Of a DNA stretch of 64,000 bases, positions 30,534-38,063 are shown piece by piece. The number at the start of each line of letters is the position of its first letter. The first letter of the stretch is position 1. The notes beneath the pieces were generated by a model, which worked only from the letters and a program-made list of their open reading frames with translations, made no database searches and was not told the origin of the DNA. The position numbers were made by a program, and so were the translations under genes. Source of the DNA: Eledone cirrhosa (Eukaryota); contig OZ024757.1 of the NCBI GenBank assembly GCA_964016885.1, forward strand, positions 32,116,001 through 32,180,000, written 5' to 3'.

Positions 30534-30571
30534 CCTTTACCGGTTTCGCAGTTCTTCTGCTTTTCAAAAGG
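30534..30571 (-). ncRNA. Minimal hammerhead with U3-A8 core variant (element family D, ~30465-30607)
   Basis: Minus strand reads CCTT-TTGAAAA-GCAG-aagaa-CTGC-GAAA-CCGG-TA-AAGG. Stem III is the palindrome ACCGGU. Confidence 0.7.
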
Positions 30572-30669
30572 TGAGTTGAGATGGAGGGTCTGTGGTTTTT
30601 CTCACATCATATATATATATATATGTGTGTGTATGTACGGATGGATATATGTATACATATATGTATACA

Positions 30670-30722
<53 letters not shown>

Positions 30723-30771
30723 GAAGTAATTCCGTCGGAAAGGTCCAGGAAAAAAGAGTGCTCTCTGTCTC

Positions 30772-30812
<41 letters not shown>

Positions 30813-30853
30813 ATGATATTAATAAATGGAAACTATATTTATAAAACCATATT

Positions 30854-30914
30854 TATTCTATTATATATATTTCAAGGGTACCAAAACTTTGGTACGCCCT
30901 CATCAGATAAAATA
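30854..30914 (-). ncRNA. Type I hammerhead ribozyme with AU-only palindromic stem III
   Basis: Minus strand reads TATTTTAT-CTGATGA-GGGcGTACCAAA-gt-TTTGGTACCCTT-GAAA-TATATA-TA-ATAGAATA. Stem I is 8 bp. Confidence 0.75.
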
Positions 30915-31002
30915 CAAAGTTTGTTTTATAAATATTGACATATCCAGAAGAAGAACTTAACGGTTCAACGTGAATCGTTAAGATCTCATTCCTGGGTATG
31001 TC

Positions 31003-31040
<38 letters not shown>

Positions 31041-31522
31041 GCGGGGTGTAAATGTGTATATGTGGGTGTATATATGTGTATGTGTGTGCATTTGTGTCTT
31101 TACATGTACATATGTCTGTCACATGTATGTATAAATTGCCCAAACCTCAAAAATAAACTAAACATAATATTTATCAGTTCTAAGGGAACTAACTCAAAGC
31201 ATTTCATTTAATCGAGTTAATTCTCTTTACTTCTTCACAGGAGATTTCTTTCTGTATTTATGTGAGAAATGGACGGCATAACCATTGAAGTATTATAGTC
31301 GGACTAAATAAATTGTGGTAAATACTAGCACCGTGGTCAACTTTGTCTTTCATCATTGCTGGATCGATAAAATATAGTCCGTATCATTAAAGTACTGGGG
31401 TTGATTAAATTGATTTCTTATTCGAACAGTTAGTGACGCACGTTAGACTTCTTCTTCTAGCGTGACGCCCCCATCTCAATTTGGCGGAGGAAAAACGCCA
31501 GTCCAAGGCCTGAAGACACAAA

Positions 31523-31574
<52 letters not shown>

Positions 31575-31699
31575 CACACTCACACTCACACACACACACA
31601 CACACACACAGACACACACACAGACACACACACAGACACACACAGACACACAGACACACACACACACTCTCTCTCTCACACAGACACACACAGACACAC

Positions 31700-31794
<95 letters not shown>

Positions 31795-32065
31795 ACACAC
31801 ACACACACACACGCACTCACTCTCTTTCTCTCACACACACTCACTTACAATTGTCTATTTCTCACTCAGTCTTCATTCTCTCTCTCTTTCTCTCACGCTC
31901 ACGCTCCCCTCTCTCCCTTTCTCTCTCTCTCTCTGTCTGTGTCTCTCCCCCCTCTCTCTCTGTCTCCCCCTCTCTCTCTGTCTCCCCCTCTCTCTCTGTC
32001 TCTCCCCCCTCTCTTTCGCCCTTTCTTTCTCTCTCTCTTTCTCTCCCCCTCTATCTCATATATAT

Positions 32066-32378
32066 ATCTATCTATCTAAGGCGGATAAAATTCCCGAGAT
32101 CCATGGACGAGTTCTCTCCAGCGGTCTCTGTCCCTCATTATCGCTGCCATATCCTGCATCTCCAACAGACCAGTGTCTGTCCTTAGGGCATCAACATATG
32201 TTAACCTTGGTCTTCCTCTTCTAGTGTGTCCATGTAGGGGCTCCCAAAGGAGCACTGAGTGCAATGTCAACTCTGGATGTCGGTGAGCATGTCCAGCCAA
32301 CCTCAGTCTTCTCTGTGTCACTTTTGAGCTGACTTTTGGGATGCTCCCATACAGCTCTGAGTTTTTCATCCTCAGTGT
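32066..32378 (-). mobile_element. RTE-clade LINE 3' end
   Basis: Translates to NSELYGSIPKVS..RRLRLAGHAHRHPE..LLWEP..RRGRPRLTYVD..DRDRWR, followed by an (AGAT)n tail. Confidence 0.85.
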
Positions 32379-32479
32379 ATATATTTATATTCGTATGTGT
32401 ATGTGGATGATAGAGAGTATTTATGTCCTGTGCCCAGCAGACTAGCTTTTTTTTTTTACTGAAATAAGTAGCGGGCTCG

Positions 32480-32510
<31 letters not shown>

Positions 32511-33021
32511 TGTATGTATGTATGTATGTATGTATGTATGTATGTATGTATTTCTTTGTATGTATGTATGTATTTCTTTGTATGTATGTATGTATTTCTT
32601 TGTATGTATGTATGTATGTATGTATGTATGTATGTATGTATGTATTTCTATGTATGTATGTATGTATGTATGTATGTATGTATTTCTTTGTATGTATGTA
32701 ACCTATTTTCGTTCTCAAATACTTTAAACAAATTAGATATATATTTATGTTTATATCTTATCTCCAAGGTAAGTCAAACGTTTTGAAGTGATGACATGAA
32801 GTAAATACCGTTGAAAAGTTTGAAGTGTTTCAAAGTTTAACTTTTTCAGAAATACCTGTTTCTAAGTATCTGAATACCCGCAATGGAAGTTTCGGTCTTC
32901 TTGAAACTGCGAGGATTGTCTCAGTTGATTGAATGTTTTACCCCCATTTCCGATATTTAGAAGACCAGATTTTTTTCTGTATTCACTTTAGGTTGAGCTC
33001 TCTATTCAGACATTTACGCTT

Positions 33022-33099
<78 letters not shown>

Positions 33100-33812
33100 T
33101 CTCTCGGCACATTGAGTACCCGAACGAGGCACATTGTTTTCCACATTTCCAACAAGAAGAAATCCCACATAGACAATAATAATCAGCAACATATTGTACA
33201 TGGCTTCTATGATGACTTCTAAGATCAGCTTTCCTGAGGCAAATTCGGCCACACTCATTGCACATAAAGCAATTTTGGCTATTAGAAAATCCAAGTAAAG
33301 TAATATCGTGGATATTCTTACCCTCTTTAATTTTTCATATTCCACACGAATTTTTTCAAATTACTGTTTTCCTTCAAGACGCTTGATCTAAGGCAATGTC
33401 TTCCCAGCTATACTCTCTGGTTTCTGACTTTATCAAAGCTCTTTCGATGCAGTCTCCGTATCTCAGTTTTGGTTTATGCCTTGTTCGTTTACCTGTGACT
33501 AACACCCCTTACAGTAACAGCTTAGGAATACGTTGATCTGGCATTATTTCAACATGGCCGGTGGATTGGCAGTATCGGTAGAGCATCAGACACCATGCTT
33601 TGCAGCATAGGATTATGGGCATTTATATTCTGAGTTCAAATTCCGCCGAGGTTAATTTTTTACCTTTCATCCTTACGGGGTCGATAAAATAAAGTACCAG
33701 TAATGCACTGGGGTAATTGCTAGCCTTGTGCCAAAAGTAGAAACAATTATTACAACATGGCCGCTCTGGCGCAATCTATACTGAATTATGAGGGATTCAA
33801 TACTATAAAAAT
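33100..33812 (-). mobile_element. RTE-clade LINE 3' remnant with C2H2 finger, interrupted by a SINE
   Basis: Translates to SIESLIIQYRLRQSGHV|EIMPDQRIPKLLL..GKRTRHKPKLRY, and CNECGRICLRKADLRSHHRSH. Confidence 0.8.
33561..33752 (+). mobile_element. SINE family 1 with 11-bp TSD
   Basis: CAACATGGCCG at 33550-33560 and 33753-33763. Confidence 0.92.
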
Positions 33813-33854
<42 letters not shown>

Positions 33855-34077
33855 TTACATACATATATATATATACAGTATATATATATATATGATATAT
33901 AATATATATATACATACATATATAAAATTGCAAGTTTGAAGAATGATCATACATATATGTATATATATATATATATATGTATATACTTACATGCATATAT
34001 ATATATATACAGTATATATATATGATATATAATATATATATACATACATATATAAAATTGCAAGTTTGAAGAATTAT

Positions 34078-34945: not shown

Positions 34946-35129
34946 TATTATATATATATATATATATAATATATATATTATATATATATATATATATTAT
35001 ATCTATATATATATTATATAATATATATATTATATATATATTATATATATATATATATTATATATATATTATATATATATATATATTATATATATATTAT
35101 ATCTATATATATATTATATATATATTATA

Positions 35130-35177
<48 letters not shown>

Positions 35178-35217
35178 ATATATTATATATATATATATAT
35201 TATATATATATTATATC

Positions 35218-35249
<32 letters not shown>

Positions 35250-35270
35250 ATATATTATATATATATTATA

Positions 35271-35313
<43 letters not shown>

Positions 35314-36400
35314 ATATATATATATATATTATATATATATATATATTATATATATATTATATATATATTATATCTATATATATTATATATATATATATAT
35401 TATATATATATATTATATCTATATATATATTATATATTTATATATATATATATTATTTATATATATATATTATATATATATATATATTATATATATAATA
35501 TATATATAATATATATTATATATATAATATATATATATTATATATAACGAAGGAAATGTGGTAATATTTTTATTGGTAATATTTTTAGACCAGAATTAGC
35601 CGTCGAAACGGCTTGAGCTCAGCCGTCGGGGTCCTACTCGTTCCTATATTATATATATATATATTATATATATAATATATATATAAATTATATACATATA
35701 TATTATATATATATATTATATATATATATAATATATATACATTATATATATATTATATATATATATTATATATATATATTATATATATATTATATTTATA
35801 TTATATATGTTATATTTATATTATATATATATTATATATATATTATATATGATATATATATATATATATATATAATATAGATGTATTATATATATATATT
35901 AATATATATACATATATATATATGTATTATATATATATATATTAATATATATGTATTATATATATATATATGTAATATATATATTATATATATGTATTAT
36001 ATATATATTATATATATGTATTATATATATATAATATATATATATTATATTTATATATTATATATATATATATATTATATATATGTATTATATATATATT
36101 ATATATATATTATATATTTATATATTATATATATATATATTATATTTATATATTATATATATATATTATATATATATGTATATATATATATTATATATAT
36201 ATATATATATAATATTTTTATATTATATATATATATTATATATATGTATTATATATATATTATATATATATTATATATATATATATCATATTTATATATT
36301 ATATATATGAATTATATATATATTATATATATATATATATTATATTTATATATAATATATATATATTATATTTATATATTATATATATATATATTATATT

Positions 36401-36447
<47 letters not shown>

Positions 36448-36702
36448 TATATATTATATATATATATATTATATATATATATATGTTATATATACATATA
36501 CTATATATATATTATATATATATATATATTATATATATATTATGTTATATATACATATACTATATCTATATTATATATATATATATATTATATCTATCTA
36601 TCTTATATATATATACTATATATATATTATATATATATATATTATATATATCTTTTATATATATTTTATATATATATATTATATATATATATATATACTA
36701 TA

Positions 36703-36735
<33 letters not shown>

Positions 36736-36814
36736 CTATATATACTATATATATCTATCATATATATTTTATATATATATATTTTTATATATATATATAT
36801 ATATATATACTATA

Positions 36815-36849
<35 letters not shown>

Positions 36850-37587
36850 CTATATATACTATATATATCTATCATATATATATTTTATATATATATATTT
36901 TATATATATTATATATATACTATATATACTATATATATTATATATATATATATATATTATATATATATATATACTATATATATATTATATATATATTATA
37001 TATATATATTATATATATATTATATATATACTATATATACTATATATATTATATATATATATATTATATATATATATACTATATATATATTATATATATA
37101 TTATATATATATACTATATATATATTATATATATATTATATATATATATTATATATATATATTATATATATATATATTATATATATATATATATTATAAA
37201 TATCTATCATATATATATTTTATATATATATATTATATATATATTATATATATATATATACTATATATATATTATATATATATATATATTATAAATATCT
37301 ATCATATATATATTTTATATATATATATATTATATATATATTATATATATATATCATATATATATTATATATATATTATATATATATATCATATATATAT
37401 TATATATATATATATATATCATATATATATTATATATATATTATATATATATATCATATATATATTATATATATATATATATATATCATATATATTTTAT
37501 ATATATATATATATATATCATATATACACATTATATATAATATATATATCATATATATATATATTATATATATATATATATTATATA

Positions 37588-37619
<32 letters not shown>

Positions 37620-37673
37620 CATATATATATATATAATATATATATATGGTATATATATATAATATATATATGA

Positions 37674-37710
<37 letters not shown>
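34700..37710. repeat. ~3-kb degenerate (TA)n/TATTA satellite containing a family-B fragment at 35545-35647
   Basis: Direct inspection. Confidence 0.95.
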
Positions 37711-37716
<6 letters not shown>

Positions 37717-37911
37717 TTACTCTCTTTCCTACACCACATCACACCCCGTCCCTCCTCGTCTTTTACCTCCATTACTCTCTTTTTTGCCTCTCTCTCTCTA
37801 TATATATATATCTATATCTATATATATATCTATATATATATACACATATACACATACATACATATATATATATATATACATACATATATATATATATACA
37901 TATATTATATA

Positions 37912-37957
<46 letters not shown>

Positions 37958-38025
37958 AGGAAAAAAGATGAAATCGAAAATGCAACTTGAGCCTTTTTTT
38001 TTTTTAAATATATATTTAGTTGGTT

Positions 38026-38063
38026 CCTTTACCGTTTTCGCAGTTCTTCTGCTTTTCAAAAGT
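38026..38063 (-). ncRNA. Second U3-A8 hammerhead copy (family D, ~37960-38099), stem III mutated
   Basis: Minus strand reads aCTT-TTGAAAA-GCAG-aagaa-CTGC-GAAA-ACGG-TA-AAGG. Confidence 0.55.

Follow-up and report, generated by a model that had tools for sequence, protein, structure and literature searches.

Does the motif found twice in the 64-kb window (the whole stretch of DNA analysed), which resembles a hammerhead with U3-A8 instead of C3-G8, descend from a ribozyme that worked with this core pair, from one that was already dead, or from no ribozyme at all, and what kind of element carried it? The sequence-only reading had reported the core UUGAAAA, with U3-A8, in both copies; direct reading of the minus strand confirms it and gives a minimal type I hammerhead in each, laid out as follows:

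30354..30462, no strand: (TA)n microsatellite adjoining copy 1 on its 3' side (Tandem Repeats Finder)
30464..30606, minus strand: repeat copy 1, about 140 nt, left from a longer element by 5' shortening, with (TA)n tracts on both sides
30609-30719: second (TA)n microsatellite, on the 5' side of copy 1
30534..30571, minus strand: hammerhead copy 1, minimal type I, with 4-bp stem I, 4-bp stem II and palindromic helix III
30571-30568 (5' arm) and 30537-30534 (3' arm), minus strand: stem I of copy 1
30561..30567, minus strand: core of copy 1, U3-U4-G5-A6-A7-A8-A9 (U3 at 30567, A8 at 30562, A9 at 30561)
30548..30560, minus strand: stem-loop II of copy 1, 4 bp (30560-30557 with 30551-30548), G10.1-C11.1, 5-nt loop
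30547-30544, minus strand: G12-A13-A14-A15.1 of copy 1
30544-30539, minus strand: helix III of copy 1, 6-nt palindrome A15.1...U16.1, followed by the cleavage-site nucleotide A17 at 30538
Between 30538 and 30537, minus strand: predicted cut of copy 1, based on the descriptor scan and the double-hammerhead energy
37958..38098, minus strand: repeat copy 2, a member of the second subfamily, located at the end of a 3.2-kb (TA)-rich array
38026..38063, minus strand: hammerhead copy 2 (U3 at 38059, A8 at 38054, A17 at 38030), with 3-bp stem I and a palindrome broken at 38035

Apart from the U3-A8 swap, all core letters are canonical in both copies, and both have the A15.1-U16.1 pair and an N-U-H cut site, which reads G-U-A. 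The core lies between stems I and II, and stem II has 4 bp with the G10.1-C11.1 pair in each case. Copy 2 has the layout of copy 1 at a distance of 7,492 nt and differs from it at 2 of the 38 motif positions: at 38063 stem I loses its outer pair and is reduced to 3 bp, and at 38035 (position 15.2) an A disrupts the helix III palindrome. Neither difference had been mentioned in the sequence-only reading. In masked self-BLAST, 30464-30603 matches 37958-38095 at 88.6% over 140 nt. The unpaired nucleotide between A9 and position 10.1, usual in min-HHRs and not universal, is absent here, and so are the 6-bp stem I and the loop 1/loop 2 contact of canonical type I hammerheads.

It could be argued that an AT-rich repeat containing UUGAAAA, a small hairpin and GAAA resembles a hammerhead by chance and is unrelated to these ribozymes. 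UUGAAAA does sit in homopolymer runs, the folding z-score of the monomer is about 0, and the descriptor was composed only after the motif had been noticed. Moreover, over 30500-30960 Rfam gave no hammerhead model at E<=10 and none among all 31 matches; this miss is uninformative, since a canonical C3-G8 motif at 30906, in the same stretch, is likewise unmatched. For the whole window, the 150 matches listed out of 386 were solely microsatellite-driven miRNA matches. However, the strict descriptor (at least 4 bp in each of stems I and II, a palindromic helix III, any letters at positions 3 and 8) found no match in any of 300 dinucleotide shuffles of the 34,342 unmasked bases (142 segments), and the relaxed one, needed for copy 2, gave a U3-A8 match in 1 of 300. 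Six other motifs in the window, each with C3-G8, are built alike, and A17 is found in 7 of the 8 motifs overall. Build and A17 of our repeat equal those of its canonical neighbours; its palindrome and G10.1-C11.1 are as in published min-HHRs. We regard chance resemblance as extremely improbable.

The U3-A8 repeat has only two copies within the window, and the exact motif pattern (C or U at position 3, G or A at position 8) gave no loci in metagenome contigs and none in genome contigs, nor did the pattern of the 5' flank in metagenome contigs. The family was sampled through four public runs, which provided 1,258 and 1,400 reads and 1,628 and 3 contigs, the 1,628 contigs coming from run X1; variants were listed from 1%, and 30452-30538 was left out of the comparison as repeat. 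Neither C3 (30567 A>G) nor G8 (30562 T>C) was listed in any of the four runs, and both subfamilies carry U3-A8. As both letters fall below the 1% threshold, U3-A8 belongs to the family as a whole. Thus, counting positions 3 and 8 in reads and contigs, as had been proposed, revealed no frequent single-change states at that threshold. The earlier view of a family-level compensatory variant rather than decay stands in its first part, on four runs and two subfamilies. Its compensatory part is unproven, since both letters would be common to all descendants of a single founder, with or without a working ribozyme: U3-A8 shows common descent and is no demonstration of selection. Indeed, motif and flank did not differ significantly in conservation (2/38 vs 14/105 positions differing, p=0.24), nor did core and other positions in the variability of reads (2/8 vs 23/52, p=0.45), and no C3-G8 sister family was found that would polarise the change.

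The letters of copy 2 at the sites matching 30571, 30572, 30575 and 30590 recur in 80-104 of the X1 contigs. The short stem I of copy 2 was considered as decay and this was rejected, the letter being a trait of the subfamily (104 contigs). Positions 30539-30545, which cover the site of copy 2's palindrome break (38035), lie at the edge of the compared stretch and have no rows. The subfamily with 3-bp stem I makes up 52% of X1 contig depth, so the weaker fold spread at least as well. Its 81-88% share of RAD reads was rejected as a copy frequency, because this subfamily has an AATT site at 30576, where hundreds of molecules end. The closing pair of stem II (30557) is variable, being broken in 10-19% of reads (134/691 in X21 and 91/872 in X22), and the deepest contig of a second organism label, with a depth of 65, shows 0 differences over 30539-30608.

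As to the carrier, the repeat is dispersed, non-coding and inserted in (TA)n. Most reads run past 30608 into a longer sequence that they have in common. This upstream sequence is shared by 426 and 478 reads and by 47 contigs, and other copies terminate in (TA)n at the same place. An inverted copy is joined at 30601 in 64 and 78 reads, and opposite-strand joints occur at 30570/30606 and 30608/30609. Inverted truncated copies and a bias for microsatellites have been described for Penelope-like retroelements (PLEs; PMC8557442); here we find dispersed 5'-shortened copies with inverted truncated partners and insertion into microsatellite or AT-rich sequence, with (TA)n flanking both copies, the latter not being diagnostic because 45% of the window is masked simple repeat. 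None of the 6 translations scanned, all from pieces of the window, has a PLE domain (RT, GIY-YIG), and 30 letters of the upstream continuation are visible in the reads. We discarded a reading of the two copies as the pLTR pair of a single element, since they differ in subfamily and are separated by unrelated repeats, with no PLE ORF between them. A real hammerhead might also have been carried by a non-autonomous SINE-like or retrozyme-like repeat instead of surviving as what is left of a coding PLE. Retrozymes with type I hammerheads, often monomers, are known from animals (10.64898/2026.07.22.740005), and both window copies, as many others, start near 30606-30608 and are non-coding. We consider this carrier unlikely, given the longer upstream sequence common to most copies, the PLE-like inverted joints and a helix geometry which is that of min-HHRs and not of the type with a canonical 6-bp stem I. 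Moreover, the copies are not tandem as retrozyme units are, being solo, 7.5 kb apart, and with no tandem array at either site.

Could the motif cut? For copy 1 the predicted energy is -21.1 kcal/mol for the double hammerhead, -15.0 for a pair of monomers and -0.4 for a single monomer folded as a hammerhead, and in the homodimer the intermolecular helix III has a predicted P of 0.92-1.00. A palindromic 15.1-16.1 segment, which permits a double hammerhead in min-HHRs, is found in copy 1 and not in copy 2. The double hammerhead of copy 2 is predicted at -2.1 kcal/mol against a cofold minimum of -19.4, with helix III at P=0.00, since a 3-bp stem I and a broken palindrome would prevent this fold. 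According to these models, the copy-1 type can adopt the double-hammerhead fold, whereas copy 2 itself is probably inactive. As the cut-site nucleotide is A, U3 can also pair with A17, with a predicted P of 0.43 in the monomer and 0.53 in the dimer of copy 1; the predicted minimum-energy dimer holds this pair closed (-22.5 vs -21.1), the predicted cost of the trap being only 1.4 kcal/mol per dimer. This resembles the inhibitory C3:G17 trap, a pair that strongly impairs minimal hammerheads (PMC3884650). Both the trapping of U3 by A17 and the predicted inability of copy 2 to form an active dimer had been overlooked earlier.

The trap bears on a possible but rather doubtful reading, according to which the origin is PLE-type but the ribozyme has no catalytic activity. 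A founder able to do without cleavage would have fixed two transitions within a U4-G-A4 run, U3:A17 and the short stem I would lock the RNA off, and the Watson-Crick fit of U3-A8 would be incidental or historical. Besides the predicted U3:A17 pairing and the analogous effect of C3:G17, it is consistent with the absence of a distal stem I and of any loop-loop contact from the predicted folds, and with the weaker subfamily being about half of contig depth. In the Anolis PLE the hammerhead is protein-assisted, and ribozyme mutants left in vitro insertion unimpaired (PMC11167929), so selection on cutting may be weak. U3 occurs together with A17 in 0 of 56 published representatives, other compilations possibly already listing the family or a U3/A17 case, and a full-text literature search found no paper that names U3-A17 together with a hammerhead. 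Nevertheless, copy 1 and the deepest contig of the second label both keep the remaining core letters, G10.1-C11.1 and the palindrome, a U-A trap should be weaker than a C-G one, with the small predicted cost given above, and none of the 7 multi-locus variable sites is located in the core, which is not significant (P=0.35).

We lean somewhat towards a PLE origin, in which the 3' end of one PLE family would have inserted independently at the two sites, each time into (TA)n, the founder had a minimal type I hammerhead with U3-A8, and the solo copies are passive; the ribozyme would be a weak one, dependent on a dimer or on protein. The anatomy fits the consensus published for min-HHRs (stem I of 3-5 bp, G10.1-C11.1, palindromic 15.2-16.2). 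It counts against this explanation that the pieces scanned link no PLE RT/GIY-YIG ORF to either copy and that the conservation signal is not significant. So do the successful spread of the subfamily with 3-bp stem I, the variable closing pair of stem II, the closed U3:A17 pair of the minimum-energy dimer and the unimpaired insertion of the Anolis ribozyme mutants. The founder PLE would have carried the hammerhead with the known U3-A8 core pair, and its 3' ends would have inserted independently into (TA)n microsatellites. Where one transcript contains two repeats, these would pair with each other through the palindromic helix III and stem I to give a double hammerhead, in which U3-A8 would replace C3-G8 and a slow cut would occur 3' of A17, probably helped by the protein of the element. 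U3 would alternatively pair with A17, stacked on stem I; since position 17 is A and allows this pair, relatives with C3-G8 should be more active. The solo copies in the genome most likely represent passive remnants. It is conceivable that U3-A8 and A17 form a built-in switch, U3:A17 being the off state, with stem I extended over the cut site, and U3:A8 the on state, which are predicted to be about equally likely and would be flipped by the element protein or by dimerisation; such a natural, selected 3:17 trap that times cleavage in the retrotransposition cycle seems highly unlikely to us.

The U3-A8 variant is already known and is not new. Natural U3-A8 hammerheads were reported in 2011 and called compensatory, active in vitro as shown earlier (Perreault et al., PMC3088659), and the pair is found in about 1,300 Schistosoma Penelope-element hammerheads, mostly solo (Cervera and De la Pena 2014, PMC4209133); the rarity implied earlier thus does not hold. 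Our family adds one host and one family to a documented variant of a documented class, the minimal PLE hammerheads, and its special value is limited to the test of the 3:17 trap that nature offers here. Cutting by the U3-A8/A17 dimer would mean that a minimal ribozyme naturally escapes the rule of no 3:17 pairing; failure of the dimer to cut would support PLE families amplifying with a dead hammerhead, and would bear on the role of ribozymes in PLEs.

The hammerheads of PMC3088659 share the 3-8 covariation, but they are self-contained and come from a survey across all domains, whereas ours is minimal, with a helix III stable in the dimer only. PAc, from the Anolis Poseidon PLE, is likewise a PLE pLTR hammerhead, depends on the 3-8 pair and has a protein-assisted-cleavage model; it differs in its C3-G8 core, in overlapping the ORF start and in that its cleavage was assayed, ours being predicted from sequence (PMC11167929). 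The S. mansoni hammerheads of the Cercyon PLE (PMC4209133) resemble ours in being type I, minimal, U3-A8 and dimer-dependent by design, and in S. mansoni(4) the core likewise reads UUGAAAA and stem I has 3 bp. Unlike them, our motif has a 4-bp stem II not preceded by an unpaired base and a palindromic helix III loop of 2 nt; position 17 is A here, U in S. mansoni(4) and G in S. mansoni(3), and our motif has no linked PLE ORF in the pieces scanned. The PLE motif of Marsupenaeus japonicus (Fig. S3, PMC4209133) shares the 4-bp stem II with no bulge, a helix III closed by a CG palindrome, and A17, but has C3-G8, and therefore no 3:17 pair, and a 5-bp stem I. Like our copies, the shrimp and Saccoglossus(2) rows of the same figure have no unpaired nucleotide before position 10.1.

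The UUGAAAA core claimed by the sequence-only reading for both copies was read directly in each, on the minus strand. By sequence reading and descriptor scan, copy 1 (30571-30534) has a type I hammerhead layout with a 4-bp stem I, the core letters U3-U4-G5-A6-A7-A8-A9, a 4-bp stem II whose first pair is G10.1-C11.1 and which is followed by GAAA, a helix III formed by a 6-nt palindrome from A15.1 to U16.1, and then A17 and the second stem I arm. Copy 2 (38063-38026) has two changes in the 38 positions: its outer stem I pair is gone and position 15.2 breaks the palindrome. Of the parts said to be retained, stem II, GAAA and the cut site thus stood, while copy 2 had lost that outer pair. 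Both motifs are carried by a 140-nt repeat (88.6% identity in masked self-BLAST) flanked in both copies by (TA)n according to Tandem Repeats Finder, and the 64-kb window holds no further copies of it. The window is eukaryotic and non-coding and contains long (TA)n arrays; simple-repeat masking covers 28,970 of its 64,000 bases. Together with a plentiful SINE-like family, the arrays bring to mind a genome of cephalopod type.

To estimate chance expectation, the 34,342 unmasked bases were shuffled 300 times with dinucleotide content kept and then scanned with a descriptor composed after the motif had been seen. The strict form (stems I and II of at least 4 bp, palindromic helix III) matched 0/300 shuffles, whatever the letters at 3 and 8, and the relaxed form required for copy 2 gave a U3-A8 match in one of the 300. 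Rfam matched neither the U3-A8 variant nor the canonical C3-G8 motif at 30906, and therefore has no testing power for this minimal hammerhead class. The descriptor scan found another six motifs with this build in the window, all C3-G8 (coordinates are those of position 3):

1497, plus strand: intact, within the 1229-1651 inverted repeat
1383, minus strand: G12 changed, within the same inverted repeat
12693, plus strand: of a family distinct from 12941, 16965 and 30906
12941, plus strand: U10.1-U11.1 mismatch, U17
16965, minus strand: bulged 6-bp stem II, decayed palindrome
30906, minus strand: long stem II

The cut-site letter is A in 7 of the 8 motifs. The 423-bp inverted repeat at 1229-1651, with its two hammerheads on opposite strands, looks like an inverted end of a Penelope-like element (PLE). 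By eye, an inverted pair akin to the 30812-30912 hammerhead family lies at about 46290-46505, its junction apparently broken, and two decayed hammerhead-like relics missed by the descriptor lie at about 2990-3065 and 53200-53260, both on the plus strand.

Four of the 23 listed public runs were chosen and aligned to 30452-30620 (80% likeness, 1% listing threshold), covering 30539-30620 only: X21 and X22 (1,258 and 1,400 RAD-seq reads), X1 (1,628 contigs) and X4 (3 contigs, under a second organism label). Neither C3 (30567 A>G; depth about 430-760 reads in X21, 560-945 in X22) nor G8 (30562 T>C; depth 759 and 945) appears in any row at 1% or above, so single-change states stay under 1% and the family as a whole is U3-A8. 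These counts come from unphased reads in an alignment that would miss diverged sister families, from RAD data that cover few loci unevenly, and from contigs that lose rare variants. At position 8 the table lists one change alone, to U (3/759 in X21; 108/945 in X22, from one start). The motif is thus real and family-wide. Counting the 3/8 states, the check proposed with the sequence-only reading, upholds its view of a family-level variant rather than decay, single changes not being as frequent as U3-A8.

The further claim, that the double change is compensatory, does not follow from this. Family-wide fixation has no power to show compensation, since descendants of a single founder carry both letters, functional or not. 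Divergence was 2/38 in the motif vs 14/105 in the flank (p=0.24), listed variable sites were 2/8 in the core vs 23/52 at other positions (p=0.45), and 0/7 multi-locus variable sites fell in the core (P=0.35): all three tests tilt towards constraint and none is significant. Pattern scans of public metagenome and genome contigs found no C3-G8 relative of the family.

Two subfamilies are visible in the variant table. At 30571/30572 the letters of copy 2 are seen in 349/430 reads of X21 and 493/562 of X22, though a restriction site at 30574-30577 inflates these shares; the same letters make up 52% of the contig depth of X1 and 22% of that of X4. As they recur across runs, the 3-bp stem I is inherited; its reading as decay is ruled out by these reads and contigs. 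The stem II closing pair is altered in 134/691 reads (X21) and 91/872 (X22), and its G at 30557 is the most variable motif position among copies, where three different changes occur, supported by as many as 29 read starts and 32 contigs.

Past 30608 most reads and contigs run on in one common sequence (426 and 478 reads, 47 X1 contigs, one X4 contig). Other copies stop at 30605-30607 in (TA)n, as both window copies do, and in 64 and 78 reads the 3' side of the motif recurs in inverted orientation, joined at 30601. PLEs, too, leave shortened copies and inverted partners, insert into microsatellites and carry a hammerhead close to the 3' end (PMC8557442, PMC4209133); since RT and GIY-YIG domains were absent from the six window translations scanned, the repeat is only probably a PLE. 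An AU-rich GU...AG stretch of about 49 nt (30540-30492, minus strand) begins at the copy 1 cut site. In some PLEs an intron adjoins the hammerhead, and one may speculate that this stretch is such an intron.

For copy 1, the monomer hammerhead fold is predicted at -0.4 kcal/mol and the double hammerhead at -21.1 vs -15.0 kcal/mol for two separate monomers, with inter-strand helix III at P 0.92-1.00. This predicted dimer agrees with the published dimer mechanism of PLE hammerheads, which show low activity when assayed (PMC4209133, PMC6765202). The copy 2 double hammerhead reaches only -2.1 vs a cofold minimum of -19.4 kcal/mol; it is not expected to form, and this copy is probably inactive.

The minimum-energy dimer of copy 1 (-22.5 kcal/mol) departs from the active layout solely in a U3:A17 pair closed above stem I, predicted at P=0.53 in the dimer and P=0.43 in the monomer. 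The sequence-only reading overlooked this competition, the sole point that a specialist might wish to test. As described in PMC3884650, a C3:G17 pair is the accepted cause of the strong G17 impairment in minimal hammerheads, and in tertiary-stabilised ones it slows cleavage about 8- to 100-fold and roughly halves its extent. We infer that U3:A17 may act likewise, from nearest-neighbour energies that leave out the tertiary 3-8 pair. An Anolis PLE hammerhead cleaves only with the element's protein and requires the 3-8 pair, and it is dispensable for insertion in vitro (PMC11167929). Given the U3:A17 liability and this behaviour, two readings are live. The U3-A8 hammerhead would cut weakly, with assistance, which we hold slightly likelier than not; a dead but inherited motif, to which both the U3:A17 analogue of the inhibitory C3:G17 and the dispensability in Anolis point, is less likely but a serious possibility.

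Weakly active or not, the U3-A8 hammerhead joins a kind already described. Perreault et al. 2011 (PMC3088659) report natural C3-G8 to U3-A8 covariation among several hammerheads, referring to previous work for the in vitro activity of U3-A8, and Cervera and De la Peña 2014 (PMC4209133) obtained about 1,300 U3-A8 matches in the Cercyon PLEs of Schistosoma. In Fig. S3 of the latter, 3/56 representatives have U3: S. mansoni(4) shares the UUGAAAA core but has U17 instead of A17, S. mansoni(3) has U3-A8 but G17, and Saccoglossus(1) shows that a single-change state, U3 with G8, occurs in nature. The shrimp row is built like the motif here but with C3-G8, and U3 and A17 occur together in 0/56. Among the texts that could be searched, only PMC3884650 and PMC4209133 matched for U3-A17 hammerheads. 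Judged mostly by titles and abstract openings, none of the four papers listed on octopus and hammerhead ribozymes seems to describe cephalopod ones.

Other repeats and frames were noted in the window. A SINE-like family is abundant in masked self-BLAST (at least 10 copies, 70-96% alike); we presume that it resembles tRNA-derived mollusc SINEs. A second family has a strong internal palindrome, some copies being perfect inverted pairs and (TA)n usually adjoining, and may be another PLE end. Two open frames look by eye like the C-terminal parts of LINE proteins of the RTE type and had no Pfam match at E<=0.1. A frameshifted ORF, matched weakly and below cut-off by the zinc-knuckle model PF00098 (E=0.037), is possibly a retroelement ORF1 remnant.

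20893-21160, 22713-22903, 24439-24550, 33556-33759, 41275-41636, 43248-43467, 45062-45241, 50030-50226, 57887-58071, 59205-59406: SINE-like copies
16520-16711, 35580-35640, 54645-54824, 56521-56643, 62737-62858: internal-palindrome family
1229-1651, 38315-38468, 53528-53646, 28151-28190: long near-perfect inverted repeats
32076-32384, minus strand, and 28160-28851, plus strand: open frames
15076-16276, plus strand: frameshifted ORF
55470-56430: minisatellite array, units of about 94 nt
5406-6292: minisatellite array, 32/41-nt units
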